Positions 3-21,382 of a stretch of DNA of 21,384 bases are shown here, piece after piece. Each line of letters starts with the position of its first letter. Positions within the stretch are counted from its first letter, which is position 1. The position numbers and the translations under genes were made by a program. Below the pieces are notes generated by a model. That model saw nothing but the letters and a program-made list of their open reading frames with translations, was not told the origin of the DNA and did not search any database. Source of the stretch: Elusimicrobiota bacterium (lineage in GTDB: Bacteria > Elusimicrobiota > Elusimicrobia > UBA1565 > JACRDR01); NCBI GenBank assembly GCA_041694815.1, contig JBGFSC010000036.1:1-21384 (forward strand). Direction: 5' to 3'.

Positions 3-818
3 CCCGGGGCGCCGGCGGCGGCGCCGCTGCCCGGCGAGGCGGCGGGCGCTCGGCTGGAGCCGTTGGCCGCCTTGGGAATCCCGCGCATGGGAGCCCTGGG
101 CGAGGATGCCGGCTCCCCTTGGCCCGCGCTTACCCACGGGGGACCGCGTTTCGCGTTCCTGGAGTCGCGCAAGCCGGAGGAATTGAGCGAGATGCTAAAG
201 GCCGAGAGCCCCGAGGATTTAGCGCTTCTCTTCGGCTATCTGACCGAGACCAATCCCACGCAGTCGAGCCTGCTTTTCTCCTCCTTGCCGCAGGAGCTGC
301 AGATGCAGGTCTCCCAGTCCCTGCTCAAGCTCAACCTGGCCGATCCCGAGCGGCTCGCGATGCTCGAGTCGAGGCTCAAGACGCAGACCGAGTTCTTCGT
401 CCGCGGCCCGGACCGGCTCGGCAGCATCTACAGCCGCCTCCCCTTCGACCAGCGCAACGCGTTGCTGCGGGAGCTCGCCACGGCCGACCCCGAGGGCTCC
501 GCGAAGATGGCCAAGTCGATGATGCCCTTCGAGTCCTTGATGGATTTAAGGCCCGAGGACATGCGGCGGCTTTTGACCAGCGTGCCCTATCAGGACTGGG
601 CCGTGGCCTTGAAGGGGCTCTCGCCCGCGGCCAGCGCCAAGATCATGGACCAGTTCCCGGCCGAGACGCGCGTGGTCATGCGCGAGATGATGGAGCCCGT
701 GCAGCCCAGGTCCAAGGTGATGGCCGCCCGCTCGAAGATATTGGGCCAGGCCTTTGCCCTGGCGGCGCAAGGGCAATTGCGCCTGCGCGAGACCGACAAT
801 GCCGAGGACGTGCTTTGA
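3..818 (+). CDS. FliG-like protein (middle and C-terminal domains), 5' truncated by the window edge
   Basis: The frame is open from base 3 (PGAPAAAPLPGEAAGARLEPL...). It has FliG-like segments: 'AESPEDLALLFGYL' (cf. EHPQxIALILSYL), 'SMMPFESL' (cf. MFxF), 'DMRRLLTSVPYQDWAVALKG' and 'VMAARSKIL'. Confidence 0.8.
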   Translation, partial: PGAPAAAPLPGEAAGARLEPLAALGIPRMGALGEDAGSPWPALTHGGPRFAFLESRKPEELSEMLKAESPEDLALLFGYLTETNPTQSSLLFSSLPQELQMQVSQSLLKLNLADPERLAMLESRLKTQTEFFVRGPDRLGSIYSRLPFDQRNALLRELATADPEGSAKMAKSMMPFESLMDLRPEDMRRLLTSVPYQDWAVALKGLSPAASAKIMDQFPAETRVVMREMMEPVQPRSKVMAARSKILGQAFALAAQGQLRLRETDNAEDVL

Positions 819-2692
819 CCGAGACCATTGAGGCTCGCAGGAAGGACTGGGCGGGGCTTCGCGAGGCCATGCAGGCCTTCGTCAAGACGGTCGCCCGGTT
901 CACCCAGCGTCCGGAGTCCTCCCCCGCCTCCTATCATCCCGGCGCGGGCGACAACCCCGGCGCCGAGCTCTCGCGATGGGAGGAGGCGGTCCGCGCCTCC
1001 GAGTTCGACTTGGGCGGCAAGCTCCAAGCCCTCGAGAATGCCTGGGCCAAGACCGACCAGGACCTCCAGCAGCTGTTGAGGGGGATGTGCCTCTTCCGCG
1101 AAACGGCCCTGGAGATGCCTTGGACGCCGGAGCCCAGCGACGAGGCCCAGCTTTCCTTGATCCACGCCCAGCTTCTCAACATCGCCGCGCTCTGGGCCCA
1201 GCAGTCCCGGCGCGAGCGCAAGCTCCAAATCGAGAAGGCGTGGCTGGCCAAGACCTGGGTCTGGGCCAGGGACATCTCGCTGCCGGCGCTGGCCGCGCGG
1301 ACCCGCGACAGCAGGCTGGAGCCCTCGGTCGCGCTGCTGCGCATGCGGATGGCGCGCATGGAGCGGCTCTTCCTAGAACTGGAGGCCAATCCGGCGGGAT
1401 TAGACGAGCGCATGATGGGTTTCGTCGGCGCGGAGATCGCGCGGCTGCGCTCGCGCTACAAGGGGCTCGACCAGGAGAACGCGCGGCTGCGCCGGGAGCA
1501 TGAGCAGTGGCTTCCCGAGGCCAAGGCCCTGCGTTCCGAGATGGACTCCGTGCGCCGCGACAACGATATCCTGGCCCGACACAACGAGCGTTACCGCGCC
1601 CTTCTGGAGGAGGCGAAGGCGGACCGCGAGGCCGCCCTCATCCGGCTCAGGGACGCGGAGGCGGCGCTGCGCGAGGAACGCGCGGCCATGCAGTCCCGGC
1701 TCATCGAGAAGGACGCGATGCTGGTGATGGAGAAAAGGGTCTTCGAGGCCCGGCTATCCGAAAAGGAGTCCGCCCTCCAAAACGAGAGGCGCGTTTTCGA
1801 GGCCGAACGCAACACGCTGCGGCAGCGCTTCAAGGAGGCGATCTTCAGGCTGCGCGCGCGCTTCAAGCAGGAGGCGAGCGCGGGCTCCAGCGAGATCGAA
1901 CAATTGCGCAAGGAGAAGGAGCTATGGCAGGGTGCCAAGGCCCTGCTGCTGGAGGGATTCGAGGAGGAGCGGCAGTCCATGCAAAAGGAGATCGCCCGTC
2001 TCCAGAACGCCTCCGCTCCCGCCAAGCCCGAGGGTCCCTTCTGGGCTCGATTCCTCGAGGAAAGGCGCTCGGACCTCGACAAGGCCCTCAGGGAGATCGA
2101 CGCGCTTGGGCGCTCTGGCGTCCAGGAGGCCCTCCGCGCGCGCCTGCGCGCCTTGGCGGGCACGCTGGCCCAGGCGCAGGACCTGCTTCGGACCGCCGCG
2201 ATGTTCCACGACGATTCGCCCTCGGCCGGTTCTCCGGGCTCGGTCTCCTCCCTGCTCGAGAAGTCGTTGCGGCCTTGGGAGACGAGCCTGCGTTTGCGCG
2301 CCGTCGCGCTGCAGCGGAAAATAGAACAGAAGCTTCCCGACTGCCTGATCTCCGAGCCCGTCGCGATCGTTTTCTACCAGATCCTGCGCAATGCCTACGA
2401 GGCGATGCCGCGCGGCGGCTCCCTGCGCGTCGAAGCGCAGGCCGGGCCCGAAGGCAGGACGCTTGTGCGCTTCATCGATACAGGCCCGGGCCTGCCGGCC
2501 GAGCTCGTGGGCAAGAGGCCGGCGCCGGGATTCGCCGCCCGAAGCGGGCATCCCGGCCTCGGGTTGGCCTTAGCGCAGCGTATCATGGATAGGCTCGGGG
2601 GGCAATTGCAGCTCTCCAACGAGCAGCCCAACGGCGCCTGCGTCGCGCTTCTTTTCAACCCCGCTGACGCCGCGCCGCCCCCGTCGCCATGA
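815..2692 (+). CDS. Soluble long coiled-coil protein with C-terminal HATPase_c (histidine-kinase-like) domain; no canonical H-box
   Basis: TTG at 815 overlaps the FliG-like stop (TTGA) and follows GAGGA at 804-808. The middle is E/R/L/A heptad-rich. The C-terminus has an N-box (QILRNAYEAM), G1 (DTGPG) and G2 (GLGLAL). No transmembrane segment is evident. Confidence 0.8.
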   Translation: MTETIEARRKDWAGLREAMQAFVKTVARFTQRPESSPASYHPGAGDNPGAELSRWEEAVRASEFDLGGKLQALENAWAKTDQDLQQLLRGMCLFRETALEMPWTPEPSDEAQLSLIHAQLLNIAALWAQQSRRERKLQIEKAWLAKTWVWARDISLPALAARTRDSRLEPSVALLRMRMARMERLFLELEANPAGLDERMMGFVGAEIARLRSRYKGLDQENARLRREHEQWLPEAKALRSEMDSVRRDNDILARHNERYRALLEEAKADREAALIRLRDAEAALREERAAMQSRLIEKDAMLVMEKRVFEARLSEKESALQNERRVFEAERNTLRQRFKEAIFRLRARFKQEASAGSSEIEQLRKEKELWQGAKALLLEGFEEERQSMQKEIARLQNASAPAKPEGPFWARFLEERRSDLDKALREIDALGRSGVQEALRARLRALAGTLAQAQDLLRTAAMFHDDSPSAGSPGSVSSLLEKSLRPWETSLRLRAVALQRKIEQKLPDCLISEPVAIVFYQILRNAYEAMPRGGSLRVEAQAGPEGRTLVRFIDTGPGLPAELVGKRPAPGFAARSGHPGLGLALAQRIMDRLGGQLQLSNEQPNGACVALLFNPADAAPPPSP

Positions 2693-3495
2693 ACCTGACC
2701 TTCATCATCGGCGTCATAGCCACCTTCGGCATCGTCTTCTTATCCGTGCGCCAGTACGGTGCCTGGATGATCCTGTCGAACGTGTACGCGTTGACCTTCG
2801 TCATAGGCGGAGTCATCGCGGCGAACCTGGTGGGCTGCCCCTTCGGCCGGCTGCGCAGCGCGACGGTCCGGGCACTCTCGATGCTGTTTCCGTCCAATCT
2901 TCCCTCCAGCGAGGAGGCCATCCTCGAGGTCTCGCGGTTGGCACAGCTCGCCTTCTCGGGGGGCGGCATCCTGGCCCTGTCCAACGAGAGCGAGGAGTTC
3001 GCCGATGGTTTCCTCCATCAGGCGATCATGGCGGCGATCGCGACGGGGCAATCGCAGGAAACCCGGCGGATCATGGAGAAAAAGGTGCGCCAGTTGCGTA
3101 TCTCCGCCCAGGAGGACGTCAACGTCTTCAGGACGGCCGGGACGCTGGCGCCGATGTTCGGCCTCTTGGGCACCCTGCTCGGGATGATGCACGCCATGGC
3201 GACCATGTCGGAGCCCGCCAAGGTGGGCCCGACGATGGCGATGGCGCTCTCCTCCGCCTTTTACGGCATCGCGGTGTCCAATCTCGTCTGCCTTCCCGTC
3301 AGCAGCCACATGCGGCTGCGGGCCATGCAGCAGACCCTGGTGCTCGAGATACTTCTCGAGGGGGTCCTCGATATCCTCGCCTCCAAGCCCCCCTCCCTAA
3401 TCGCGATGCACCTTTCCTCGTACTCGCAGGCCCGCCGCCAGGAGATCGAAACGGCCGCGCCGGCGCCGACCCCCGCCCCCGAGGACGCCGCGTGA
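2689..3495 (+). CDS. motA: MotA/PomA-family stator A subunit
   Basis: Two N-terminal TM helices, a cytoplasmic loop, TM3 'AGTLAPMFGLLGTLLGM', TM4 'MAMALSSAFYGIAVSNLVCLP' and 'LEGVLDI...P'. ATGA overlap with the upstream gene. Confidence 0.9.
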   Translation: MNLTFIIGVIATFGIVFLSVRQYGAWMILSNVYALTFVIGGVIAANLVGCPFGRLRSATVRALSMLFPSNLPSSEEAILEVSRLAQLAFSGGGILALSNESEEFADGFLHQAIMAAIATGQSQETRRIMEKKVRQLRISAQEDVNVFRTAGTLAPMFGLLGTLLGMMHAMATMSEPAKVGPTMAMALSSAFYGIAVSNLVCLPVSSHMRLRAMQQTLVLEILLEGVLDILASKPPSLIAMHLSSYSQARRQEIETAAPAPTPAPEDAA

Positions 3496-4121
3496 GCATT
3501 TGGGAGGAGCGCGAGGAGGACGTCGAGAACGCGCTCAACCGCAACGCCCTCTGGGCGATCACCTACGGCGACCTGATGAGCTACATGGTCGTCTTTTTCA
3601 TGATGTTGGCCGTGTTCAATATGTCGCGCAGCGTTCCCTCGCAGATGAGCGTGCAGTCCGTCGAGGAGGAGTTCGGCAAGACGAAGAAGGCGGTCGGCGA
3701 GCTCTTCTCCCGTCGCGGCGTGCAGCAGATCGCCAAGATCGAGCTGGGCGAGACCCAAATGAAGATCGTCCTGCTGGAGCCGGTCGTTTTCGACTCGGGG
3801 GACGCGCGCCTTAAGACCGAATCGGCGCCGCAGCTGGTGAAATTGGCCGAGGCCCTGGGGGAGCTGCCCAACCCCATCCAGATCGAAGGCCATACCGACG
3901 ACCGCCCCCTGGCCAAGGGCGGCCGCTACGAGACGAACTGGGAACTCTCCGCCGCGCGCGCCTTCGCCGTGATGCAATTTTTCGCTCGGCACGGCATACG
4001 CCCCCAGCGCATGTCGGCCATCGGCTACGGGGAATTCCGTCCCGTGGCCTCCAACGATACCAACGACGGGCGAGCCCTCAACCGTCGTATCGAGATTAAT
4101 CTGGTTCGAACTAAGCAGTAA
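3492..4121 (+). CDS. motB: MotB-family stator B subunit with OmpA-like peptidoglycan-binding domain
   Basis: GTG start (GTGA overlap, GAGGA at 3481). TM 'WAITYGDLMSYMVVFFMML' keeps the ion-binding Asp. OmpA-C motifs 'IEGHTD', 'NWELSAARA', 'GYGEFRP', 'NRRIEI'. Confidence 0.93.
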   Translation: MSIWEEREEDVENALNRNALWAITYGDLMSYMVVFFMMLAVFNMSRSVPSQMSVQSVEEEFGKTKKAVGELFSRRGVQQIAKIELGETQMKIVLLEPVVFDSGDARLKTESAPQLVKLAEALGELPNPIQIEGHTDDRPLAKGGRYETNWELSAARAFAVMQFFARHGIRPQRMSAIGYGEFRPVASNDTNDGRALNRRIEINLVRTKQ

Positions 4122-4194: not shown

Positions 4195-6267
4195 CTAGGC
4201 AGTCGTTTTGGAAGCGGTGGCCTCGGCCGGCTTGACGGGAATCTTGAACACGAAGGTCGTGCCCTTGCCGACCGTCGACTCGGCCCAGATGCGCCCGCCG
4301 TGCAGCTCGACGGCCTTGCGGCAGATCGCCAGGCCCAGGCCGTAGCCGGCGCGTTTTTGTTCCCCCTCGAGCTGCTTGAACTTCTCGAAGATGGACTCGA
4401 TCTGGCTGGCCGGGATGCCGGGCCCCGTGTCGGCGACGGCGAACTTGACCATTCGGCCGTCATCGACGCCGACGGCCGTGAGCGTGATCTTGCCGCCCTC
4501 GGGCGTGAACTTGAGGGCGTTGCCGATCAAGTTCATCACCACGCGCTCGATGAGCTGTCGGTCGGCCTCGAACTCGATGGGCGCGCCGCTTTTCTCCGCG
4601 AGGAAGGTCTTGCCCTGCTTTTCCGTCGTCAGGCCGAACATCCCCTGCATCATGTCGAGCATCTTGTGGGTGTCGCTCTTCTCGATGCGCAGCGTCAAGG
4701 TCCCCGATTCGAGTTTGGCGGCGTCCAAGATGTCGGCGATGAGCTGCTGGAGCGTGGCCGTCGACTGGCGGATCACGGGGATATAGGTGTTGGCGCGCTC
4801 ATCGAGCATGCCTTTCTGGACCATGAACTCGAGGAAGCCCTTGATCGTGCTCAACGGGTTGCGCAGGTCGTGGACGATCGAATGAAAGAACTCCTCCTTC
4901 ATCGCGTTGAGCCGCTCCTGCAGGGTAACGTCGTGCAGGAAGTACAGCACGGCCGGCTCCTTATTGCCCTGGTTGACATGCGAACAGATGAACACCTGGC
5001 ACTTGTAGTAAGTCGAATGGCCGTCTTGGCGGACCTCGATAAGTTCCTGGGAGGCGCCCTTCTTGGTCATGCGCTGGATGGAGTCGCGGAATGCCTCCAG
5101 GGGGATGCGCGCGTGCAACGGGCCGGCGCCGTCGGCGGATGCGCTCAGGCCCAACGGGGCCAAGGCTTGTCGGTTGACGTATTCGGGGTCTCCCCGGAGC
5201 GTCGCCAGGGCCACCCCGTCGGGGATGGCGTTGACCAAGGTCTCGACCTTGGCCTTCTCGGCGAGCAGGGAGTCGATCTGGATCTCCTGGTACTTCTTGA
5301 GCCGCTGCATCATCTGGTTGAATGTATCGGCCAGCTCCCTCAACTTCTCCCAACCCTCGAGCCGCACGGGCTTTTGGAATTCGTTGTGCGCGACCCGGCG
5401 CGCCCCGGCGATGAGCTCTTCCAAGGGCATCGTCAATTTCTTGGTGACGACGGCGGAGGCCAGCAGGACGCAGACCGTCAAGAAGGTGATCCCGGCTAAA
5501 AGCTCCAGGCGGAAGGTTCCCTCCGTGAGGTAGGCCTCCGCGCGGGGCTGGCGCGTGGAGACGTACCAGCCCAAGGAGGGGCTTTTCTCGAAGGCGCCGA
5601 CCCAGTCCTCGGAAGAGGCGTCCAGCCATCCCTTCTCCCCCCGCATCCCGGCGACCGGTCGTGCCCCCTCCTGACCGGGCAGGGGTCGGCCCGAGCCGTC
5701 GTACATGAAAACCCCGCCGCTCTTGCCCACCCGCCTGGCCTTGAAGCGCCGCCACAGCCCTTCGAGAGAATAACCCGCGTAAAGGATCCTCCCCCCTTCC
5801 AGCGGGTAGGCCAGGCTCAATACGGGAACATTCCCTAGAAGCTCAACCGAGCCCAAGGAGACCCGCCCGCTGCTGCGGGCGTTGGAGACGATGGGGTCGG
5901 AGGAGCGGTCCTCGAAGGCGTTTGAGGATAGGCGATTGTCGGAAGTGCGGAGGTATTCCTTGCCATCGGGCCCCAAGAGCGACAGTATGGCGAATTGAGG
6001 ATTGGCCGAGGCGCGCTGCAATATCTTGAATTCGTCCCATTTCTTGCCGCCGGCCTCCTCTAAGTCCTGCACGAAGGACAACGCTCGGTTCATGTCGGAG
6101 GCCGCCTGCTCGAGCGTTTCGACGCCAAAATGGGCCAGCTGCGCGTGGAAGGAGGACGCGTTCTCCTTGGCCATCTTGTTGGAGCGCAGCACCCAGGCGC
6201 TGACGAGAAATAGCGGGAGAAGGGAAAAGGACAATAAAACGAGAAGGACCCGTGTGAACAGGTTCAC
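4195..6267 (-). CDS. Membrane sensor histidine kinase (TM, Cache-like periplasmic region, TM, HAMP, PAS-like, HisKA, HATPase_c)
   Basis: H-box 'SIVHDLRNPL', N-box 'NLIGNALKFT', 'DTGPGI', 'IFEKF', 'GYGLGLAI'. HAMP 'LTMPLEEL...LADTFNQM'. GTG at 6267 is preferred to TTG at 6297 because TACACT lies 6 nt upstream. Confidence 0.93.
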   Translation of the reverse strand: MNLFTRVLLVLLSFSLLPLFLVSAWVLRSNKMAKENASSFHAQLAHFGVETLEQAASDMNRALSFVQDLEEAGGKKWDEFKILQRASANPQFAILSLLGPDGKEYLRTSDNRLSSNAFEDRSSDPIVSNARSSGRVSLGSVELLGNVPVLSLAYPLEGGRILYAGYSLEGLWRRFKARRVGKSGGVFMYDGSGRPLPGQEGARPVAGMRGEKGWLDASSEDWVGAFEKSPSLGWYVSTRQPRAEAYLTEGTFRLELLAGITFLTVCVLLASAVVTKKLTMPLEELIAGARRVAHNEFQKPVRLEGWEKLRELADTFNQMMQRLKKYQEIQIDSLLAEKAKVETLVNAIPDGVALATLRGDPEYVNRQALAPLGLSASADGAGPLHARIPLEAFRDSIQRMTKKGASQELIEVRQDGHSTYYKCQVFICSHVNQGNKEPAVLYFLHDVTLQERLNAMKEEFFHSIVHDLRNPLSTIKGFLEFMVQKGMLDERANTYIPVIRQSTATLQQLIADILDAAKLESGTLTLRIEKSDTHKMLDMMQGMFGLTTEKQGKTFLAEKSGAPIEFEADRQLIERVVMNLIGNALKFTPEGGKITLTAVGVDDGRMVKFAVADTGPGIPASQIESIFEKFKQLEGEQKRAGYGLGLAICRKAVELHGGRIWAESTVGKGTTFVFKIPVKPAEATASKTTA

Positions 6268-6273
6268 GCGGAC

Positions 6274-6279
6274 AGTGTA
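6274..6279 (-). promoter_or_regulatory. Putative -10 element (TACACT) for a leaderless kinase transcript
   Basis: The minus strand reads TACACT-gtccgc-GTG, with no Shine-Dalgarno sequence. Confidence 0.5.
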
Positions 6280-6291
6280 TGAAATTGCGAC

Positions 6292-6330
6292 TGGCAAATT
6301 AACCAGGCCTCTGTTATATTTAGCTTAGGA
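6292..6330 (+). promoter_or_regulatory. Putative extended -10 promoter and RBS for the REC-PilB gene
   Basis: TGGCAA-N17-TATATT with TG at the extended -10 position (TGtTATATT). AGGA at 6327-6330 precedes ATG 6341. Confidence 0.4.
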
Positions 6331-6340
6331 CTGCACTGAT

Positions 6341-8125
6341 ATGGGACTTGTAATGATCGTTGAGGACAACACCGCCTACCGTACCTTCCTGGTCCAGTTG
6401 GTCACGGCCGACGGGCATGAGGCCCTCACCGCCGCCGACGGCGTCCAGGCGCTAGAAAAGATCAAGACCAAGAGAAACGGCAAGCCCATCGAACCCGACC
6501 TCGTCCTCATCGATTACAACATGGACAAGATGAACGGTTTCGAGCTCATCAACCGGCTGCGTACGACCGAGACGACTCGCAAGACCCCCATCGTGATGAT
6601 CTCCGGCACGGAGAAGAATTTGGGCCCCGTGTTGGCCATGGAAGGGGTCAAGTTCGTGCGCAAGTTGAGCCAAACGAACGAGATACTCAACGCGATCCGC
6701 GAGCATGTCGCGCCCAACGCGCCTCCCCCGGCCGCCCACTCGGCCAAACCCTCCAACGGCTCCGCCGCGGTGGAAACGGCGCCAGCCGTGCCTGCCGCGA
6801 AAACCGAGGCCGAAATCAGGGCGGAGGAGGCGCTGCAGGCGGCCGAAAAGGAAGAGGCGGATTTAAAGCTCAAGGAGCTCATGGTCCTTTCCTCCGAGAT
6901 CACGCCCTTGACGGAGGCCAAGGAGGAGGAAAAGGAGCATAGCCACGAGGATCAGTCCCAGATGATCCGGCTCGTCGACGGCATCCTGGTAGAGGCCATC
7001 CGCCGCAAGGCCTCCGACATCCACGTGCAGCCGCAGGAGGACGCCCTCTACATCCGCTACCGCATCGACGGGCAATTGCAACAGGTGCTGACCCTGCCCA
7101 TCGCCTTCAAGGCGAACATCCCCTCGCGTCTGAAGGTCATGAGCGGCATGAACGTCGCCGAAAAGCGACTGCCCCAGGACGGGCGTTTCTCCATGAAGAC
7201 CGAGTCGGGCCAGCGCGTCGAGTTCCGCGTCAACACCCTCCCCTCCCAGCACGGCGAAAAGGTGGTCATGCGCCTCTTGCGCCACGAGAAGATCTCGACC
7301 CCGCTCAAGGATATCTTTACCCGCCCCCGCGACCTGGAGGCCGTAGAGACCGCCTTGAAGGCGCCGACCGGGCTGATCCTGGTGACGGGGCCCACGGGCA
7401 GCGGCAAGACGACGACGCTCTACGCCATGTTGGACGTAGTCAACAAACCGACGCGCAACATCATCACCGTCGAGGATCCGGTAGAAAACGAGGTGGCGGG
7501 CATCACTCAGGTCCCGGTGCGCGCGGATATCGGCTTCACCTTCGAAAAGGTGTTGAGGTCCTGCCTGCGTCAGGACCCCAACATCATCATGGTCGGCGAA
7601 ATACGCGACACGGAGACCGCCGAGATCGCCATGAAGGCGGCCATGACCGGGCATTTGGTGCTCTCGACCCTGCATACGAACACCGCTCCCCTCGCGATCT
7701 ACCGCCTGTCAACGATGGGGGTCAAGCCCTTCCTCATCGTGGCGGCCCTTAAAGTAGCGATCGCCCAGAGGCTCATCCGCCTTTTGTGTCCCCATTGCAA
7801 GGTGCAGGCTCCGCTCGACGAGGAATTGGCGAGCCAGCTGGCCAAGGAGGAACGCAAGAAGCTGGCCAAGGTATTCGTCAAGGGCCCGAAGGGCTGCGAT
7901 CATTGCGACGGAGTAGGATACAAAGGCCGCAAGGCGGTGCTGGAAGTAATGACGGTCAAGTCCCATGAAACCCGGCAGCTCATCATGGAGGCCGCCAATC
8001 CCGACAAGATACTCGAGCGCGCCAAGGCCGACGGGATGGTCCCTCTACGCGATGGGGCCATCGACCTGGTGGCGCAGGGCCTGACCTCCCTCGAAGAAGC
8101 ATTCACAATCTACTACGTCGATTAA
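6341..8125 (+). CDS. Receiver domain fused to a PilB/GspE-family (type IV pilus/T2SS) extension ATPase
   Basis: N-terminal REC (IVEDN, LVLIDYNM, MISG, VRK), then a Pro/Ala linker, 'ASDIH', 'RLPQDGR', Walker A GPTGSGKTT, 'TVEDPVE', 'LRQDPNIIMVGEIRD', His box 'GHLVLSTLHTN' and a CPHC...CDHC zinc motif. Confidence 0.92.
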   Translation: MGLVMIVEDNTAYRTFLVQLVTADGHEALTAADGVQALEKIKTKRNGKPIEPDLVLIDYNMDKMNGFELINRLRTTETTRKTPIVMISGTEKNLGPVLAMEGVKFVRKLSQTNEILNAIREHVAPNAPPPAAHSAKPSNGSAAVETAPAVPAAKTEAEIRAEEALQAAEKEEADLKLKELMVLSSEITPLTEAKEEEKEHSHEDQSQMIRLVDGILVEAIRRKASDIHVQPQEDALYIRYRIDGQLQQVLTLPIAFKANIPSRLKVMSGMNVAEKRLPQDGRFSMKTESGQRVEFRVNTLPSQHGEKVVMRLLRHEKISTPLKDIFTRPRDLEAVETALKAPTGLILVTGPTGSGKTTTLYAMLDVVNKPTRNIITVEDPVENEVAGITQVPVRADIGFTFEKVLRSCLRQDPNIIMVGEIRDTETAEIAMKAAMTGHLVLSTLHTNTAPLAIYRLSTMGVKPFLIVAALKVAIAQRLIRLLCPHCKVQAPLDEELASQLAKEERKKLAKVFVKGPKGCDHCDGVGYKGRKAVLEVMTVKSHETRQLIMEAANPDKILERAKADGMVPLRDGAIDLVAQGLTSLEEAFTIYYVD

Positions 8126-8160: not shown

Positions 8161-8904
8161 TTAATCGTTAAGCTTATACCCGACGTTGACGACGGTCTCG
8201 ATCTTGGTTCCGAGCGCCCCCAGCTTCCTTCGCAGGGATTCGATATGCTTGTCGATGGTGCGGGTGGTGATGGTGGAATCGCTGTTCCATACTTTCTCTA
8301 AAATAAGCCCGCGCGTCAGCACCCGATTGCGGTTTTTGACCATGAAAGCCAGGAGATTGAATTCCAGCGGGGTCAGGTGCAGCGGTTGGCCGTCTAGGAG
8401 ACTCACATGGGCTTCGGAATCGATGGTCAGGGGGCCGAGGGTGAGGTGGCTGGGCCCCGCGATGCCCTCCCTCCAGAACGCGCGGCGCAGCAGGGCCGCG
8501 ATGCGCGCCGCCAAGAACTCAGGCTGAACGGAGTAGGCGAGGTAATCGTCGGCGCCGGCCTTAAGCCCCTCCGTGACGTTCTTGCTGCTGCGGAACTTGC
8601 CCGACATCAGCACGACCAAAAGCGCGCGGGTATCGGGACGCTCCTTGAGCATCCTCAGGAATTGCCATCCCGCCATTCCCGGCAGCTCGATGTCGAGGAG
8701 CAAGAGATGCGGCACCAACTGCCCCAGGCTGTCGATGAACTTGCCGTGGCTCGAGAAGCAGTCGACGTCGTAGCCGTCTAGTCGCAGGAGATTGCCCAAA
8801 TGCTCGAGCACCTCGCGGTCGTCGTCGAGGATGGCGATGCGGTAGGGCGACTGGATTTTACCCGCCGTCCGTCCGGCCTCCAGCGTAGTCTTGAGCTTAG
8901 GCAT
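8161..8904 (-). CDS. OmpR/PhoB-family response regulator (REC plus winged helix)
   Basis: 'ILDDD', 'LLLDIELPGMAG'. Winged-helix motifs 'LTPLEFNLL', 'VLTRGLILEKVW', 'RTIDKHIESLRRKL', 'IETVVNVGYKL'. Confidence 0.92.
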   Translation of the reverse strand: MPKLKTTLEAGRTAGKIQSPYRIAILDDDREVLEHLGNLLRLDGYDVDCFSSHGKFIDSLGQLVPHLLLLDIELPGMAGWQFLRMLKERPDTRALLVVLMSGKFRSSKNVTEGLKAGADDYLAYSVQPEFLAARIAALLRRAFWREGIAGPSHLTLGPLTIDSEAHVSLLDGQPLHLTPLEFNLLAFMVKNRNRVLTRGLILEKVWNSDSTITTRTIDKHIESLRRKLGALGTKIETVVNVGYKLND

Positions 8905-9289
8905 TGGACGCCTGGCGGAACAGGGCCGTGACGCGCGCCAGTACCTCGGCCGAGTCGAAGGGCTTGAGGATATAGTCGTCGGCCCCCAGCTTGAGCCCCT
9001 TGACTACCTGCTGCATCTCCGACTGCACCGTGATCATGATAATGGGAAGGCGGCCGAATTGCCTGTCCGCCCGTATCCGTTGGCAGAGGGCGTAGCCGTC
9101 GGTATCCGGAAGATTTAAATCCAAGAGCAGCATGTCCGGCACGGATTCCGCGAGCGCCTTCATGCCGTCGGCGCCGTTTTCGGCGGTTCGGACCTGGTAT
9201 CCCTGCTCGCGAAGTAGGCCCGCGAGCAGTTCCCGATAGTCGCGTTCGTCATCGACCACCAGGAGATTTTTCGTCGTATTCTCGGACAT
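8897..9289 (-). CDS. Single-domain response regulator receiver
   Basis: 130 aa with 'LVVDDE', 'LLDLNLPDTDG', 'IMIT' and 'GADDYILKPF'. All canonical residues are present and there is no output domain. Confidence 0.92.
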   Translation of the reverse strand: MSENTTKNLLVVDDERDYRELLAGLLREQGYQVRTAENGADGMKALAESVPDMLLLDLNLPDTDGYALCQRIRADRQFGRLPIIMITVQSEMQQVVKGLKLGADDYILKPFDSAEVLARVTALFRQASNA

Positions 9290-9295
9290 CTCTCA

Positions 9296-9324
9296 AGTTT
9301 AACGGGCCGTCAAATTTCCGTCAA
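9296..9324 (-). promoter_or_regulatory. Sigma70-type promoter TTGACG-N17-TAAACT for the two regulator genes (leaderless)
   Basis: -35 at 9324-9319, 17-nt spacer, -10 at 9301-9296, then 6 nt to ATG 9289. Confidence 0.7.
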
Positions 9325-9326
9325 GG

Positions 9327-9363
9327 CCGATTATTTTGAGTCGTTGATACTTCTAATAATCGG
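9327..9363. other. 9-bp perfect inverted repeat downstream of the antitoxin gene
   Basis: CCGATTATT (9327-9335) and AATAATCGG (9355-9363) with a 19-nt spacer. It could be a terminator-like hairpin or a protein-binding site. Confidence 0.45.
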
Positions 9364-9376
9364 TATTATCATCCCG

Positions 9377-9637
9377 CTACCTATAGATCAGGGGGTACTG
9401 CTCCGGATTTTGAAGCGAGGCCAACTCTAAGTCCACATCGAGATCCGGCCAATAGAGATGCGTCCCGTGAAGCAAGGATACGTTATAAATTTCGGATAAC
9501 TTGCCGTTTTTAAACCACGGATACTCGCTAAAGGGCAAAAAATACTCTCTTTCGGTGATGAATATCCAGATGCCGTTCTTGGAAATGCCTTCGATTTCAA
9601 CGCCGGAAATGCCTTTGCCACGCGGCAACGATTTCAT
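9377..9637 (-). CDS. DUF2442-family putative antitoxin
   Basis: 86 aa, 'FLPFSEYPWFKNG...NV...HLYWPDLDVDL' as in DUF2442 proteins. It overlaps the 3' end of the DUF4160 gene. Confidence 0.85.
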   Translation of the reverse strand: MKSLPRGKGISGVEIEGISKNGIWIFITEREYFLPFSEYPWFKNGKLSEIYNVSLLHGTHLYWPDLDVDLELASLQNPEQYPLIYR

Positions 9638-9836
9638 TTTTGTGCTCCTCTATCACTTTTTGCAATTCCGTTAATTGCCTTGGCGTTAAGCCAATATGTT
9701 GGTTTAAAGAAACGATCGGCTCGAGCCAAAATTTTGCCTCTCCCTCAGGAGATAGAACATGAACATGAATGCGTTCCTCTTCACGTGAAAAGAAGAAGAA
9801 ACGATAATTTTTATAACGGAATATCGTTGGGCTCAA
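9597..9836 (-). CDS. DUF4160-family putative toxin
   Basis: 79 aa from TTG 9836: 'MSPTIFRYKNYRFFFFSREEERIHVHV...EAKFWLEP...IVAAWQRHF', the typical DUF4160 pattern. Confidence 0.87.
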   Translation of the reverse strand: MSPTIFRYKNYRFFFFSREEERIHVHVLSPEGEAKFWLEPIVSLNQHIGLTPRQLTELQKVIEEHKNEIVAAWQRHFRR

Positions 9837-9842
9837 CAGCCC

Positions 9843-9872
9843 ATTATACCTTAATGCATAGGTATTAAGGTA
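9843..9872 (-). promoter_or_regulatory. TA promoter -10 (TATAAT) overlapped by a 9-bp inverted repeat (candidate operator)
   Basis: Minus-strand TATAAT at 9848-9843 lies 6 nt before TTG 9836. TACCTTAAT-N8-ATTAAGGTA spans 9847-9872. Confidence 0.65.
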
Positions 9873-12800
9873 CGGCTGCCTGATTGCGCAGCTCGTTGAT
9901 GTGCACGGTGCGCACCGCCACGGTCGAAGTGACAATTCCCGGATCGGTCCAGGTCGGGGCGGTGGCGCTCGAGGCGACCACCGCGTCGTAGATCTTCGAG
10001 CGCAGTTCGTTGATGTGAACGGCCCGTACCGGCGTGGTGCTGGGGCTGATGCTCGGATCCGTCCAGCTGGGGGCCGAAAGCCCGCGGAAGGCCGCAATCC
10101 CCCCTGTCACGCTGCGCAGCTCCGTAACATGCGCTTCGCGTATCGTGCTGACCCAGGACGCAAGGCTCGGGTCGGTCCACGCCCAATCGCCCCTGAGCAG
10201 GATGCGCAGATTCGAGGACCAGTCGCTCCAGGAGCTTTCGTACGTCGCCGCTCGCAAATAGAGGGTGGTGGTGTTCGTCGCCAGATCCATCGTCGGCGTG
10301 AAATATACCGTGGTCCCGGCGGAGGCGGGCATTTCGGCCCAGCCGGAGCCGCTGGCGGAATATTGGAACGTGGTGCTGATGGCGACCTCGAAACCGGTGG
10401 ACGTCGAGACGCTGATCTTGGCATCCGTGCGGCTTCCTCCGTTGTTGGGCAACACGAACCATAGCTTCGGCCGCCGATTTAAAGTGAAACCGGCGTTATT
10501 GGACGGAGAGACCCAGGAAAGGAGCGCAGCTGCCGCTGTCAGGGTGCTCTTGGAGGCCTCGTAGGTGTTGCCGTAGGAGCCCAGGTTGGCGCGGTTGCCG
10601 TTGGGCGTCGGCTCGAGCGAATAGTCATCCGTGGCCGCCGCCTTATCAATCGTCTCCGAGGTCTGGGTGTCCGTGACCCAGCCGGCCGAAGGACTATAGC
10701 GCCCGGCCTCGGATTTAGGGTGGAAGTCTTCTACGCCTTGGCCCGTATTGTTCCAGAGAGGATGCGCGGAGATCGAGTTGGCGTCCTGGTTGGCGCAGCT
10801 CACGGCCCGCCAGCCTGACAGAAGTTGGCAGCTTTGGGTTCCCCATATTCCGGTATTAAAGCTATTGGAGCTAAAGAAGTCGTTATAGTTGGACATGAAG
10901 TTCGTCTGGCTGTTTGCCGAAATGCTAATGGTTGCAGAGGAGGAGCCGGCGCCCGTCACAGAGACTGAGCTAAAGAAAACGTTTCCCTTCAGTTGTGCTG
11001 CGGCGGAATTGTTTTCTAGCTTCAAGAGATAGGCGTTCGTCAACCCCGTGCCGGTGGAGTAAATGTCGTTAAACGTAAAAAGAGTGGTGGTCGTATTGCT
11101 GAGATTTGCTGCAAGAAAGCTCCCTGCCGTTTTGGCACCCGGGTTCGATATGCGATTATGGTGAATATGAAGTTTGCTCGCCCCATTTGTGTATATTCCA
11201 TAGACGGTCGAACCAGCGCCAGAGCTTCCGCGCAGATAGATATTGTTGTATTCCACCGTTGCTCCGGAAGGAAGGGCTCCAAGATAGACTCCGTAGCTGT
11301 TGGAGGTAAGAAGCGATGGCGATATCGTGTTCGAAGCAATGACCAAGGTCGTTCCGCTGTTTTGGGCATCGGCGATAATGCCATAGAGCGGACCCGGGCC
11401 TATAGTATTAGCGTAAATTCGTATATGCCCGCCGTTTGAAAGGTCCAATCGGATGGCGGAGTCGATATCGTTCGCTATAGAAAACACATTCGAGGAGATC
11501 GAAAGGTTGAAACTACCGCTATTAAATAATCGTACTCCTGCGCTGTTGCCAGCTCCGAAATAGTTGTTATTAATTATGGTTCCTATGGAAGCTATGACTT
11601 TAACTGCATCCCCGCCGCCGCTACCCTGCGTGAGATTTCCGGCAATCGTGTTTGTGCTGGACCCCGTGATATAAACACAGTCGCCGGGGATCCCTCCTCC
11701 TCCAGCGGTAATCGTGCTCTGGCTAATAAGGTTGTAGTGGCCTGAAGCAATATGGGCACCAGAACCGCTCGCGGGCGTTCCTGCTCCTCCCCCGGCAGAG
11801 CCGCCGGACATATTATTTTGAGTCGCCGTGCTTAAGCTTACAGAATCCAGGGCGAGGCCATGGCCTCCCAGTGCTCCCTCGCCGGTGCCGTAGCCCGCTC
11901 CTCCGTTGCCGCCGGTGGCGACATTGAGGCTGATCGTCATGGACGAGCTTTGGGAAAGATAAATGGCGGTAGCGCCATCCCCTCCGTTGCCGTCAACGCA
12001 GCATGGGGCGTCGCCGCCGTTGCCTCCGCTTATTAGGTTCTGCGTGATCGTGTTCGAGGACGAATTGAAAACGTAGATCCCCTGGCCTCCGAATGAAACT
12101 ACACCGCTGCCGTTGCCTCCTTCGATCCGGTTTTGGCGGATCGTATTGGAGTAGGCCGAATTGACACTGAGCGCCACGCCGCCAGGATCTCCGGTGCTCG
12201 CAGTAATTGTGCTGAAACTGAGCGTATTATTATTGGCCGCGTGTATATAAGCGGCCTCGGAGTTATTTCCCGCTCCGCCGGAAATGAGACAGGAAGTCAC
12301 CGTATTCGACGAGCCTCCGTAAAGATAGAGAGCTCGTCCTGATCCGCCGACCAAGGCAGCGGTACTATAAGAAATATTGCTTAGGGAACCATCCATGTAG
12401 AGAGCCATTTCACCATTTCCACCGAAGACGGAGACGCTGGAATAGGAAATAACGCTGAAGCTGGTGATAGAAACGCCGGCCGTATAGATGCGGCTGCTAG
12501 TGCCGCCAAGGACGCTTACACTCGATAGCGTCACGTTCGCCGAAGAGGCGCGAATGCCATAGGGGATGGAACTTGTCGGTATGATTCGAACCCCAAATAT
12601 GTTGACGCTCGAGTTGAGTACCCGGAATGCGGCCGTAGAGCCCGCCGGAGGGTCGATTACGGGATCAGGGTTTACCGATACATCCGACATGATGGTGAGG
12701 CTAGAGACCCCCGTCGCGAAGCCTTGAATGGTTACCTGTTCCGTGTAGGTGCGATTGTCCTTGATGAGCACGCAGGAATAGCCTCCGGACATGTCCGTGG

Positions 12801-15800
12801 GAATATCGGCCAGCGCGTCGTTGATCGTGGTCCGGTTACAGCCCGAAGCGCAGACCGTCTTGGTGACGGCGCAGGGCACCGCTTCCGCCAATGTTCTTGT
12901 GGAGGAAACAAAATTAAAATAGGGTCCCCGGTTGTTGCAGTTCTCCGCGGCGACTCTAAAGTAATATGTCGTCCCTTGCGCCAATCCCGTGACCGTGGCC
13001 GCATTTCCGCTGGCTGGAGCGTAGGCGTGAAACAACTCCCCGTTGAAGCTGGAATCGGTGGAGGCCTGCAGCCAATAATTCTGGACACCGCTCTCTCCGG
13101 AGCCGGTCCATTGGGCCGTCACGCTCGAGTAGAAGACACCGGTGAACTCCGGGCTGCCGGCCGAGGGAGCCGCCACCGGGGCCGCCGGTAGCGCTTGGAT
13201 GGCGGTAAACGTCGACGGCACCGCGCGCGACATGATCCAGAGATGGTGGTAGCCGCAGCCGAAGTCAGACGGGACGGTAAAGGTCAGCGTGGTTGAGGAC
13301 CAGGCGTTGGCGTAGACGTAGGTCGAAAGATTTTTGATGAAGCCGCCCGCCTCGCTCGGCCCCGGACCGCCGGAGTCAAAGGCCTTAAGATAAACCCTCG
13401 GCGCGCCCGCTCCTTGAGCCGAGTTGGCGTGATCCGATTGATGGGCGTCGGAGACAAAGGTAAAGCTCGTGCCGACGACCGTGATATTGGAGCCCGGAGC
13501 GACGGTAATGGGAGGCGCGGAACCGTTGAGCGTATTGATCTTGGGTTGGGCGGCCAGGGTGCTTCCCTGGAAATTATACTCGGTGTAAAATGCCTGCTCG
13601 GCGGAGGCAAGGGCCGCTCCCGCGGCTCCTCCCGCCAGCAGTAATTTCGCGCTCGGGGTAAGTGCCGCGATATGGTCGCGCCTGGCGGCGTTTAAGGCGT
13701 TTGCTGTCACCCAGGAGCCCAGCGCCGGGTCGAATATCTCGGTGGAGGACCAATTCGTGCTGCCGTTCCAGCCTCCGGCCACGTACACCTTGCCATCGGG
13801 AAGGAGCGTGGCGCTATGCGAGCGCCGGGCGCTCGCCATCGAGCCGGTGGAGGTCCAGATCCCGGTCCATGGGTTGTAGATCTCGGCGCTGGAAAGCCCC
13901 GAGCCACCGGCGACGAGCACGGCTCCGCTTGAGATAAGCGTCGCGCTGGGAGATTCCCGCGCCGCGTTCATCGCGTTGGCCGTCGACCAGCTATTGGCGT
14001 TCGGGTCGTAGAGCTCCGCCGTCGACAGGGCTCCGGAGCCGTTGACGCCGCCTCCCACCAGCACCTTTCCCGTGGGCAGCATCGCGGCGAAATGATTCTT
14101 GCGGGCGGAAGAAAGGCTTCCCGCCGAGGCCCAGCCGTTGGTGGCCGGATCGTAGAGCTCGGCGGTGGAGACATACGAGCTGCCGTCGTGACCGCCGACG
14201 ATTAGGACCTTGCCGTTGGCAAGCAGCGTCGCCGTATGGCTGCTTCGGGCCGCCGACATCGCGCCGGCGTTCGACCAGGTGCCGGCAGGGTCGTAGAGCT
14301 CGGCGGTCTTAAAATGCGTGGTCCCGTCGGAGCCTCCGGCGACGAGCACCTTGCCGTTGGCGAGCAGGGCTCCCGGCGCGTCCTTGCGGGCCGAGCTCAT
14401 CGAGCCGGTCGCGGCCCAGCTGCCGGCCGCCGGGTCGTAGAGCTCGGCCGTCGCCAGAACCGAGGCCCCCGCGCCACCGGCGACTAGAATCTTGCCGTTG
14501 CTTAAAAACGCCGTCGCCGGCGCCTGCCTTGCCGAGGACATCGAATTGGCGAGTGTCCAACTGCCCGCCGCCGGGTCGTAATACTCCATAGAGCTCTGGG
14601 CCGTGCTTCCGCCTCCGGGAACCATGACCTTTCCATTGGGCAATAGGATGGCCACCGTATCCTGCCGGCCCGTAAGCAAAGAGCCGGTCGCCGACCAGGA
14701 ATTGGCGATCGGGTCGTAGATATCCGCTGTGAGAAGATCTGTGGTACCACCGATGGCTATGACATTGCCGTTGGGCAAAAGCGCCGCCTGGTGACGGGTA
14801 CGAGCCGCAGCCATGTTGTTACCGGTACGAGTCCAGGTATTTTGAGCCACATCATAGATTTCCGCTGTCGACAGGCTGCTGCCTCCCGCCACAAGCACCC
14901 GGCCGTCGGTCAATAACGTCGCCGTGTGATCGGATCGCGAAGAAAGCATCGATTTGGCAGCCCCCCAGCTATGGGTCGAATAATACATCTGGCAGGTGGC
15001 GCCGCCTCCCGAACCGCCTCCCGTCATTAGCACGCGCCCGTCTCTAAGCAACGTCGCCGTGTGGATGGCCCTAGCACCGGTAAAGCTCAGGTTTGGGGCC
15101 CAATAATTATTGGAGACCGTATAGGTCGAGGAGGTAGCGAGATACGTCGCAAGGCCCGAGAGCCCTCCCGCGACCAATACTCCTCCGTCCGGCAGCAGGG
15201 TCGCCGAATGCGAGCGGCGAGCCACCGTCATCGATGTCGCAGTGCTCCAAAGCCCGGTGACCGGATTATAGATCTCGCAGGTGGCAATCGAACTGGTCGT
15301 GCCTCCGCCCATGACCAGGACGCGCCCGTCCTTGAGAAGGACCGAAGCGCCTCCATTGCGAGCCGAGGCAAGGCTGCCCGTCGTTCTCCAGGTGCCGTTC
15401 ATCGGGTCATAAATCTGAGTCATCAGCGTCGAGCCGGTGCCGCCGATAACGAGCACACGTCCATCGGCCATCAGCACGACATTGGAATCTCTCTGCGCGT
15501 TCACCATCGGCTTTCCCGTGCGCCAGGTCGGGTCGATCAGCAAGGGGTATTTGAGGCCGGAGTCGTTGAACGCCAATGTCAGCACCCACTGCCTGCCCTC
15601 ACCCCCGGCCTTTCCCAAATGATAGCTTCCCGGCACCTTTTTCCCGTCGCTATCGATGATCACGGGCGGCGTCAACTCGAGCACCGGGGAATCGTCCCCT
15701 TTTCCCAGCACCGCGAGCCGGCCTTCCCGCAACTGGAGGGAACGAATATTTTCATTGGCGGCGACACGATAGCGGAAGGCGCGATTCTCGGGCCTTCTTT

Positions 15801-21000: not shown

Positions 21001-21382
21001 CGAATAGGCCCGCATAGCCAGGGGTCGTCGTGGTCGAGACGATGAGCGGGGAAACGGCCGCGTTGGAACGGATCGTCAAGCTGGAGCCGAGAATCGTCAG
21101 CTGACCCGTCATCGTGTCGCCGGCCTTAAGCACCTTGGTGTTATCGGTCCCAGTGACATTGGTGAGCCCAGCGCCGTTTCCAAAGAAAGCGTGCGCGGTG
21201 ACCGAGGAGCCTGGAACGGATATAAAGCCGTTGGCTCCGGAAACGGTGACCGAGCCGGCGCTGATGCCGTAGGTAACACCAAGTCCTCCGGCCGCGGTCA
21301 CGCTCGGAGCCCCACTGAAGGTCTTAATGCCGCTGATGGTCTGGTTAGAAATGGTATCGACCATGTTGGCCGGAGCAGGGAT
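18086..21382 (-). CDS. Ser/Thr/Gly-rich tail-fibre/adhesin-like protein with C-terminal putative intramolecular chaperone (Peptidase_G2-like) domain; probably 5' truncated by the window edge
   Basis: The frame is open to the window edge. It has many (V/I)GIGTxxP repeats and about 12 'NTxxGxxAG' units (about 19200-19775). The C-terminus reads 'GGDLAEMY...PGDLV...GVVSVKPG...VPVALTGRVPIK...IRPGD...GVALE' followed by a short coiled coil. Confidence 0.85.
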   Translation of the reverse strand: MPAPANMVDTISNQTISGIKTFSGAPSVTAAGGLGVTYGISAGSVTVSGANGFISVPGSSVTAHAFFGNGAGLTNVTGTDNTKVLKAGDTMTGQLTILGSSLTIRSNAAVSPLIVSTTTTPGYAGLFVDGFNQVGIGTTTPTHRLDISGGGLIIRSSLTFAGITAPPVSALGQFGMYFDGGTNLLMTSTNGGSWTSLGTAASAATGWTKAGNVVSLFLPLVDNVVVQSSLTVQSNAFSVGTSTFVVNTGKIGIGTTNPSTSLDVQGDADYVQIWRNNSAVIQASMSATGILYADGSGLRNLPAGGTGETNTYTSSKTFTSAVGIGAVGLSNGTLIVRSTSATTGHPVVAVQNNVGTELMRVRLDGNVGLGTTNPLATLHLSNGAPLIYIQDSNSAATNVGYTSYVTFVDQTGVQTGFVGDGSSTRQQIILFGDTNYGVGIYTGGTERAEIDTSGNFGIGTLPTRSTFTSTGNLQLVRGSTITSNGSLSISTAASAALTGIAAITITSEGKVGISTPTPNNLFQVPGLIDFNDSLGATSLGRDAGRNNTTADNTFVGYQAGQNNTTSRYNTFVGRQAGANANSTNYNTAVGYYAGLQNTAFATTFVGAQAGQNSTADRNTFMGAFSGNNTTSGASNAFFGAYSGQSNTLGANNVYLGVYTANRNTIGSSNTATGFEAGYGAVGESFSGNTLLGYRSGYALTSGSTNTLLGASAGLNLTSGGGNIIIGANQNAPSATSSSQLNIGGAIYGNLANSKIGIGTMGPNTNLDVNGDAQFGSGSSPLQKSTFTSTPGNATYALQLSSGITIAGGGPIVFASGSGSYIKWADGSISTSASGGGGGGGSSPWQTVGSLVNLVTGTNNVVVQSTLTVQGNAFSVATSTFVVNAGKIGIGVSNPSASIEVLASTNDSYALILATGSSSTQRIVTVSTGGIVYSAGGVTYGGDLAEMYSVSEPMEPGDLVALNDDPDAMRTVRRPTGRNGEALLGVVSVKPGVTIGFKDGSTISDNRVPVALTGRVPIKISLENGPIRPGDSIAASRRRPGYGARAVRSGWVAGVALEGADKDGDTVLCYVSARSWVAPEEFEDLKKEVKELKALLERR
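18714..18807 (-). repeat. Internal duplicated module of the fibre-like gene (other copy about 20622-20716)
   Basis: NVVVQSTLTVQGNAFSVATSTFVVNAGKIGIG versus NVVVQSSLTVQSNAFSVGTSTFVVNTGKIGIG, also similar at the DNA level. Confidence 0.85.

Follow-up and report, generated by a model that had tools for sequence, protein, structure and literature searches.

The rotor-stator pair of the flagellar motor is usually regarded as flagellum-specific, and the locus described here raises the question of what such a pair does in a bacterium whose genome yields no flagellar marker genes. The locus opens a stretch of 21,384 nucleotides from an Elusimicrobiota bacterium (contig JBGFSC010000036.1 of assembly GCA_041694815.1), referred to below as the window, which makes up an entire contig (C7) of a 2.77-Mb genome in 54 contigs (completeness 97.8%, contamination 0.48%). 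Four plus-strand genes encode, in order, a one-chain FliF-FliG rotor protein, a protein resembling histidine kinases, and the two subunits of a flagellar-type stator. They represent one subtype of a widespread rotor-stator family made from flagellar parts, a family that is undescribed in the literature searched save for a passing remark. The reading favored below, as probable rather than settled, is that of a stand-alone, non-flagellar rotor-stator module made of flagellar motor parts and wired to a Cache kinase and regulators. The four genes are as follows.

3-818, plus strand: gene 1, the C-terminal 271 of 502 residues of a predicted "mini-rotor", a fusion of FliF (RBM3), a transmembrane segment and FliG (M and C domains); Pfam, PDB, contig join and Foldseek.
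815-2692, plus strand: gene 2, a 625-residue histidine kinase-like protein, apparently pseudokinase-like; Pfam HATPase_c (6e-12), structure model, Foldseek and alignment.
2689-3495, plus strand: gene 3, MotA, stator A subunit of the flagellar (MotA/PomA) type; Pfam MotA_ExbB (1.1e-21), structures and tree.
3492-4121, plus strand: gene 4, MotB, stator B subunit; Pfam MotB_plug (3.4e-07) and OmpA (9.5e-20).

Flagellar motor parts in a genome without flagellar markers

Consecutive genes of the run share 4-base start/stop overlaps (TTGA at 815-818, ATGA at 2689-2692, GTGA at 3492-3495), through which the four are translationally coupled. Coordinates and letters agree with a first-pass annotation, made from the sequence alone, that had proposed a non-flagellar motor or signaling operon. 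A longer open reading frame (ORF) in frame 2, at 2-2692, begins with 270 residues of Arg/Gly/Ala-rich filler and is an off-frame extension of the kinase-like gene. The same annotation had seen no further flagellar gene in the window, and Pfam searches of the ten large window ORFs likewise return no other flagellar family.

The absence extends to the genome. FHIPEP (FlhA), YscJ_FliF (PF01514), Flagellin_N, FliMN_C, FliP and Flg_bbr_C each have zero matches in this 97.8% complete assembly, and each of these six marker families was detected in four flagellate control genomes. The first-pass annotation had allowed that a genome search for fliF, fliM, fliN, flhA, flgE and fliC might uncover a flagellar set, that the operon might run upstream into a flagellar cluster, and that these might be the only fliG and motAB genes present; none of this is borne out. 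The contig that adjoins the window on its left (C34, see below) carries a Dph6-like ATP pyrophosphatase gene 31 bases upstream of the run on the same strand, and also a TPR gene, so no flagellar cluster extends the operon on that side. The genome itself holds FliG_C at four places and MotA_ExbB at eight.

Gene 1 matches FliG_M (2.8e-11) and FliG_C (1.1e-16) in Pfam and the FliG structure 1lkv in the PDB (7.6e-14). Because the window begins at a contig end, the gene is truncated at its 5' end. The missing ~230 N-terminal residues are encoded at G000:C34:38996-39711: the end of C34 and the start of C7 share 25 bases, a 25-mer that occurs at no other genome position, the frame is open across the join for 502 codons with a single terminal stop, and the last 670 bases of C34 match the N-terminal 200 residues of a paralogue on contig C41. 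The joined protein has one strongly hydrophobic segment, at residues 175-218. In the 530-residue C41 paralogue, Pfam YscJ_FliF_C scores 37 bits (cut-off 23.8) N-terminal of FliG_M and FliG_C, and the same family is found above its cut-off in a related locus, L066.

The 238 residues encoded on C34 were modeled with a 52-row alignment of relatives as input (mean pLDDT 83.8). The model runs through helix, strand, poorly ordered loop, strand, helix, strand and a long membrane helix, and the 18 best-scoring PDB entries in a Foldseek search with it are without exception FliF structures, covering the MS-ring, S-ring or RBM3 (E 9e-5 to 3e-3, probability 1.00). A sequence profile of this domain finds no FliF chain in the PDB, so the link to FliF rests on the fold and on the Pfam match in relatives. 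As in FliF, the modeled RBM3-type periplasmic fold is followed by a transmembrane helix; RBM1 and RBM2 (SctJ-like) are absent, the periplasmic part amounting to only ~150 residues, and FliG_N has no Pfam match in the window protein. Sequence and model together indicate that gene 1 encodes a shortened FliF (RBM3 plus membrane helix), a Pro/Ala-rich linker and a FliG without its N domain. The FliG equivalog TIGR00207 reaches 58.7 bits against a cut-off of 226.7 and aligns over profile positions 110-336 only. In the torque helix the window protein has Glu at R281, Glu at D288 and Met at D289 (E. coli numbering, checked against the K-12 protein). A separate feature of the N-terminal domain is a Pro-Gly pair, usually within L-P-G-Y/F, at positions 85-86 of the C34-encoded part; it is invariant in 52/52 aligned sequences and lies in the poorly modeled loop that takes the place of the FliF beta-collar, where it may bind a partner or form a turn.

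Sequence comparison and phylogeny assign the stator to the flagellar MotA/PomA type. The MotA of gene 3 is colinear with the PomA structure 8bri (residues 1-253 against 1-249) and aligns end to end with MotA structures as well. Its best NCBIfam rows are PomA, MotA and MotP, every one under the equivalog cut-off; NCBIfam scores stand at 128.8 against 341 for PomA and 146.2 against 283 for MotD. A quick IQ-TREE phylogeny of 68 rows included E. coli MotA, four MotAs of flagellate genomes from the same phylum and four TolQ/ExbB-type proteins of the window's own genome. All MotAs adjoining FliG-like genes cluster in it with the flagellar MotAs and are split from TolQ/ExbB with a support of 100, on which ground a stator of the ExbB/TolQ/AglR type was rejected. 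The window MotA falls in a clade (support 95) with those of loci L052, L066 and L083 and with a copy on contig C29 of its own genome. Equivalents of E. coli MotA P173 and P222 are kept in 68/68 aligned rows. The position of R90 is Phe in the window, Gln in 3/4 other clade members and Lys in the C29 copy; it is Lys or Arg in most other subtypes. At the C29 locus (C29:14851-17904, L016) a 299-residue REC-containing protein, an OmpR-type regulator, MotA and MotB follow one another in one run, and no FliG-like gene was found within the 11 kb fetched.

Gene 4 has what is expected of a stator B subunit: a plug (MotB_plug, 30.2 bits against a cut-off of 24), an Asp in the transmembrane segment, and a peptidoglycan-binding domain of the OmpA type (71.2 bits). 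Its best PDB matches are MotS, PomB and MotB, and its motif TYGDLMSY aligns with the transmembrane segment of the Clostridium sporogenes MotB chain in 6ysf; the Asp of this motif we take to be the equivalent of E. coli MotB D32. The first-pass annotation had left the kinship of the stator open between flagellar and other ion-driven motors: the flagellar MotA/PomA assignment stands, and those to ExbB/TolQ/AglR or ZorA do not. With it stands the central idea of a flagellar-type rotor and stator pair outside a flagellum.

The stator sequences also bear on whether the locus might be a Zorya-like anti-phage system, with a MotAB-type motor that senses envelope damage. The MotB matches PADLOC ZorB models at 3e-23, a generic MotB-ZorB likeness to be expected of any MotB, and a long helical protein does adjoin a motor of the 5:2 type. 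No PADLOC ZorA model matches the window MotA, however, no ZorC- or ZorD-like gene is present, and the module recurs in multiple copies in most sampled genera, with no sign of a mobile defense island in the loci seen. The chance of this reading is negligible, and identity with Zorya was rejected on the missing ZorA match and the missing ZorC/ZorD partners.

Between the rotor and stator genes, gene 2 has HATPase_c (6e-12) as its sole Pfam match. The protein begins with ~190 residues that match no known family, followed by a long helical region and a core with DHp-CA architecture. The helical region contains a 122-residue stretch free of Pro and Gly (235-356), rich in Glu, Arg, Ala and Leu, a composition from which it is probably a coiled coil. 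The ~430 residues ahead of the core are poorly conserved, and relatives span 492 to 957 residues overall. A model of the core (residues 395-625, 231 residues, computed with eight relatives; pLDDT 85, pTM 0.81) comprises a two-helix hairpin followed by an alpha/beta ATP-binding domain, and in Foldseek it superposes on ZraS, DivL, HK853, YycG, KinB and RetS with TM scores of 0.6-0.7. Across the eight relatives the N, G1 and G2 boxes do not vary (N132, D161, G163, G165, G187, G189). Pfam finds no HisKA domain in the protein, and neither of two alignments with relatives contains an invariant His column. By alignment and model, gene 2 appears to encode a histidine kinase-like protein with an ATP-binding core and no conserved phospho-acceptor His, and to be pseudokinase-like; the earlier label of "kinase-like" holds for the DHp-CA core with its HATPase_c domain and needs correction as to the histidine. 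A word-based homologue search returned only the query itself (8000 candidates scored), the helical region having probably swamped the index. Complex prediction for the FliG-like part with the gene 2 protein scored 0.01, which is no answer and is evidence neither way.

Spread and subtypes of the fusion-stator modules

The three other FliG-like genes of the genome are, like gene 1, long membrane fusions:

C38: FliG-like protein of 650 residues with a TPR tail, next to a 457-residue helical protein, MotA and MotB.
C15: FliG-like protein of 514 residues, next to MotA, two MotB and a TPR protein.
C41: FliG-like protein of 530 residues, next to a 779-residue kinase-like protein and a Cache kinase, with no MotAB.

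The C41 cluster (C41:14820-26217, L015) runs on a single strand through a protein with a type B sorting domain of the type IX secretion system (T9SS), a PorV/PorP-like barrel with TPR, a HAMP kinase, the FliF-FliG fusion, the 779-residue kinase-like protein and the Cache kinase. A third kinase-like paralogue lies just upstream of it, at ~C41:26327-27900.

An even sample of the phylum, comprising 151 genomes from 63 genera with the window's own genome included, contains FliG_C in 57/151 genomes and 45/63 genera, at one to six places per genome. FlhA occurs in 4/151, all four with a canonical FliG of ~340 residues or a fragment thereof; 53 genomes therefore have FliG_C without FlhA. Two families that together account for 89 genomes are nearly all FliG_C-negative (0/45 and 1/44 positive). 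The phylum-wide search for MotA_ExbB gave 361 matches. Outside the window's own genome there are 134 FliG_C places, of which 80 were fetched at ~9 kb each: all those from the same order and class, minus one short fragment and the canonical FliGs, and a selection from the rest of the phylum. Locus ORFs were classed by hidden Markov models made from the own genome's paralogues. An RBM3-like N-terminal domain is present in 74/82 FliG-like ORFs. MotA lies in 55/80 loci, together with MotB in 54/80 and on the same strand as the FliG-like gene in 51/80. Five arrangements recur:

Type I: fusion of ~650 residues, a gap of 2-5 kb, then MotA-MotB.
Type II: fusion of ~480-510 residues directly 5' of MotA-MotB-MotB.
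Type III, the window's: fusion, then kinase-like gene.
Type IV: MotA, fusion, MotB.
Type V: form of ~765 residues.

In the MotA tree, type III, types IV and V together, most type I rows and most type II rows form separate clades; six rows fall within another type, and four divergent type I rows make a clade of their own. The FliG tree, a FastTree phylogeny that is midpoint-rooted and carries no support values, gives similar though non-identical groups, type III in it lying apart from IV and V. This grouping by subtype in both trees would fit a rotor and stator that diversified together. As to individual arrangements, the fusion gene lies between MotA and MotB in L069, L074, L081, L084 and L086, sometimes with a further gap before MotB, and many type II loci have two tandem MotB paralogues after MotA, an example being C15:15719-17009 (L014) of the own genome.

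One flagellate genome, G064, has FlhA, a canonical 334-residue FliG and two long fusion-plus-MotAB modules (L092, L093), so that the modules coexist with a true flagellum. Beyond the sample, a related-locus search with a 4-row alignment gave eight strong loci, in Elusimicrobia or unclassified metagenome-assembled genomes, and six weak ones in other phyla; the close relatives are labeled Elusimicrobia or Elusimicrobiota metagenome-assembled genomes in public records. Against 1.84 billion cluster representatives, a profile of the N-terminal domain has 5555 matches at E<=0.001, 1387 at E<=1e-10 and 116 at E<=1e-30, and among the best 150 of these, 134 carry a FliG M/C region and most of the other 16 are short fragments. 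Look-alike clusters in the ESM Atlas, which provide a lead only, come most commonly from Elusimicrobiota, Pseudomonadota, Bdellovibrionota, Cloacimonadota, Bacteroidota and Thermodesulfobacteriota.

This distribution has to be set against the idea that a lost flagellum left these genes behind and that they are now decaying without any function. Such a relic would account for flagellar families that are recognizable yet far under their equivalog cut-offs and for the loss of canonical charged residues, and 4/151 genomes of the phylum are still flagellate. A relic would not be expected to consist of four intact, translationally coupled ORFs, to share one fusion architecture across 74/82 FliG-like ORFs, to recur in 45/63 genera at up to six places per genome, to match 1387 cluster representatives at E<=1e-10, or to occur beside true flagellar genes, as in G064. 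The idea is very improbable, and it was rejected on the intact coupled ORFs, the widely kept fusion and the coexistence in G064.

Two-component neighbors and a possible mechanism

Downstream of the four genes the window continues with the following features.

4195-6297, minus strand: dCache-HAMP-PAS-HisKA-HATPase_c sensor histidine kinase (Pfam).
6341-8125, plus strand: REC-PilB, a PilB/GspE-type ATPase with an N-terminal receiver (Response_reg 2.3e-19, T2SSE 5e-129).
8161-8904, minus strand: OmpR-type response regulator (REC and Trans_reg_C; Pfam).
8897-9289, minus strand: single-domain, CheY-like receiver (Pfam Response_reg 5.9e-32).
9865-18069, minus strand: 2734-residue protein with TPR, Kelch and fn3 domains and a weak NosD-like match.
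18086-21382, minus strand: 1098-residue ORF that reaches past the contig end and has no Pfam or NCBIfam match.

Scanning for Rfam families and tRNAs gave no match anywhere in the window. G+C falls to 0.505 (9001-10000) in the interval that separates the receiver gene from the giant ORF's 3' end, against 0.59-0.68 across the remainder of the first 11 kb; no Rfam family matches there.

The association with two-component genes recurs across the window subtype, which comprises eight loci: the window, C41 of the own genome, L052, L055, L060, L066, L075 and L083. In 7/8 the fusion gene is immediately followed by the kinase-like gene (L052 is the exception), and a Cache/PAS-HisKA kinase adjoins in 8/8, the window's kinase being 31-42% identical over its full length to those of the other seven. 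MotA and/or a MotB of 208-209 residues (51-59% identity to the window's) lies within the stretch in 5/8. In L066, L075 and L083 the stretch also holds a single-domain receiver (43-44% identity to that of the window) and an OmpR-type regulator (29-44%); the regulators encoded immediately before MotA in L066 and on C29 of the own genome share 44% identity with the window's OmpR-type regulator. The arrangement differs from genome to genome: MotA-MotB-kinase is convergent with fusion-pseudokinase in L083, and receiver-regulator-MotA-MotB lies on the opposite strand from kinase, pseudokinase and fusion in L066. Since gene order varies among genomes, the genes form a linked set, not a fixed operon.

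A different partner would be the pilus. In the window the REC-PilB gene sits between the sensor kinase and the two regulator genes, and a preprint on magnetotactic Elusimicrobiota (10.1101/2022.07.08.499144), in the portion available, speculates that motAB takes part in twitching in Elusimicrobiota. On such grounds MotAB and the FliG-like protein might be a type IV pilus accessory that modulates the REC-PilB ATPase and hence twitching. A REC-PilB counterpart is nevertheless missing from the 9 kb fetched at each of L052, L066, L075 and L083, and PilB does not adjoin the three paralogous loci of the own genome. The link between motor operon and REC-PilB suggested at first pass is accordingly not conserved in those four loci, and a pilus accessory is improbable.

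In the favored reading, that of a stand-alone motor module tied to two-component signaling, the 502-residue fusion would form an inner-membrane ring through its periplasmic FliF-RBM3-like domain, as the flagellar motor suggests, with the FliG middle and C-terminal (torque) domains as the ring's cytoplasmic face. Units of the MotA5B2 type, held on peptidoglycan by the OmpA domain of MotB, would let H+ or Na+ flow past the MotB Asp, and the resulting push of MotA on FliG_C would turn or load the ring. Gene order suggests that the kinase-like protein, as a His-less dimer with a long helical stalk, docks on the rotor, perhaps at the FliM site, and in this way ties the Cache kinase, the CheY-like receiver and the OmpR-type regulator to it. 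The coupling could work in either direction: signals may control the motor, as CheY-P does with the flagellar switch, or the state of the motor may be reported to the two-component system. Ring formation, rotation, pseudokinase docking and the direction of signaling are what we infer in this scheme; what the computation shows is the order of the genes, their domain and fold assignments, the kinship of the stator with flagellar ones, the lack of matches to the six marker families in this genome and the conserved neighborhood.

A more specific version, speculative and rather unlikely as it stands, would make the module a rotary signal transducer. Torque from MotAB on the mini-rotor would twist or load the helical stalk of the His-less kinase, whose core is a DHp-CA core, and thereby convert ion-motive force or mechanical envelope load directly into two-component phospho-signaling; alternatively, the phosphorylated receiver would be the clutch or switch of a flagellum-free motor.

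Several observations weigh against the favored module. MotA is missing from 25/80 fetched loci (five of them stopped by the contig end; L075 has MotB at the edge), and within the subtype C41, L055 and L060 have no MotAB nearby. The two-component link is suggested by gene neighborhood, with an order that is rearranged between genomes, and ring formation and rotation by homology. The rotor-stator charge pairs are eroded, MotA R90 being replaced by Phe and FliG R281 by Glu, with D288 kept as Glu; these losses point to an interface that is not strictly flagellum-like, or to an altered one. The fusion lacks FliG_N, FliM and FliN were not found in the genome, and the FliG, MotA/PomA and MotB matches all fall short of their NCBIfam equivalog cut-offs. 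The literature search found no experiment or structure for the fusion family.

The main rival is mechanical work on surface proteins, in which a MotAB-turned ring would act in the periplasm or on the outer membrane, for example by moving giant adhesins of the surface or loading them, as GldLM does with SprB, and the kinase-like and two-component genes would merely regulate this envelope machine or its expression. Two paralogous modules of the own genome sit behind surface-protein and outer-membrane genes, namely a T9SS type B sorting-domain protein (38.9 bits, cut-off 35) and a PorV/PorP-like barrel with TPR on C41, and a 1397-residue protein with an FlgD_ig-type tail and a UPF0164/TPR protein on C38; the window itself holds the 2734-residue TPR/Kelch/fn3 protein and the 1098-residue ORF of no family. 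Against this, no barrel or sorting-domain gene is seen in the window operon or in the 9 kb of L052, L066, L075 and L083, and neither of the window's giant proteins carries a T9SS sorting domain. Of the T9SS core, the genome has zero GldM matches and a sub-threshold SprA_N match of 19 bits. The periplasmic part of the fusion is, moreover, a single small RBM3-like domain for which no rod-like partner was identified. An envelope machine is on balance possible but doubtful, and the signaling-linked module remains preferred.

Relation to known motors and kinases

Members of this family have been noticed in passing. The portion of the 2022 preprint on magnetotactic Elusimicrobiota (10.1101/2022.07.08.499144) that is available states that most free-living members lack flagellar structural genes, reports "numerous homologues" of motAB, flbD and fliG in them, and calls their role unclear. 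A 2025 stator survey (PMC12505986), in its available text, separates flagellar from generic ion transporters and names the MotAB/PomAB clade "flagellar ion transporters" (FIT); that text makes no mention of standalone fusion-MotAB modules, and neither do the accessible parts of a 2026 preprint on flagellar gene phylogeny (PMC13277936). A full-text literature search, with subscription journals outside its reach, gave no description of the fusion-plus-MotAB module or of its kinase-like partner. A flagellar-type stator and a one-chain FliF-FliG rotor are kept here in several copies in a phylum mostly without flagella. Should the modules rotate, they would add another class to the ion-driven rotary machines and allow torque generation to be studied in a far simpler setting; they would also bear on whether the motor core is older than the flagellum or a later re-use of its parts. 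The window subtype adds a direct genetic link between a flagellar-type motor and two-component signaling.

The closest parallel is the core of the flagellar motor, with which the module shares an RBM3-like ring domain, the M and C domains of FliG, a colinear MotA, and a MotB with plug, Asp and OmpA domain. It differs in joining FliF and FliG in one chain without RBM1, RBM2 or FliG_N, in a genome where no export gate, rod, hook, filament or FliM/FliN was found. Neither the R90-D289 nor the E98-R281 pair is preserved in the window proteins, and a kinase-like gene follows the rotor gene. The Chlamydiaceae, bacteria not thought to be flagellated, also have a naturally occurring protein in which a shortened FliF is joined to a FliG domain (Bergeron 2016, PMC4768692, in the portion available). 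As described in that portion (PMC4768692), the chlamydial protein has ~330 residues, an RBM2-like part and only the middle region of FliG, and its context is an injectisome, not MotAB. The window fusion, by contrast, has an RBM3-like periplasmic part and FliG_C, with MotAB in the same operon.

For gene 2, the relevant comparison is with DivL (4q20) and RetS (6dk7), on which its modeled core superposes as well as on active kinases; the lack of a conserved His is common to the comparison. DivL and RetS act through partner binding and are not known to rely on autophosphorylation. Unlike them, the gene 2 protein has ~430 residues ahead of its core, which include a long helical stretch and contain no sensor domain, and its gene lies between rotor and stator genes. 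As ion-driven 5:2 motors outside the flagellum, ZorAB, ExbBD, TolQR, AglRQS and GldLM are the functional counterparts of the stator, and ZorA has a long cytoplasmic helical tail that parallels the helical signaling stalk. In contrast to all of these, the window module, with a MotA that is neither ExbB/TolQ nor ZorA, retains a FliG-type rotor partner.

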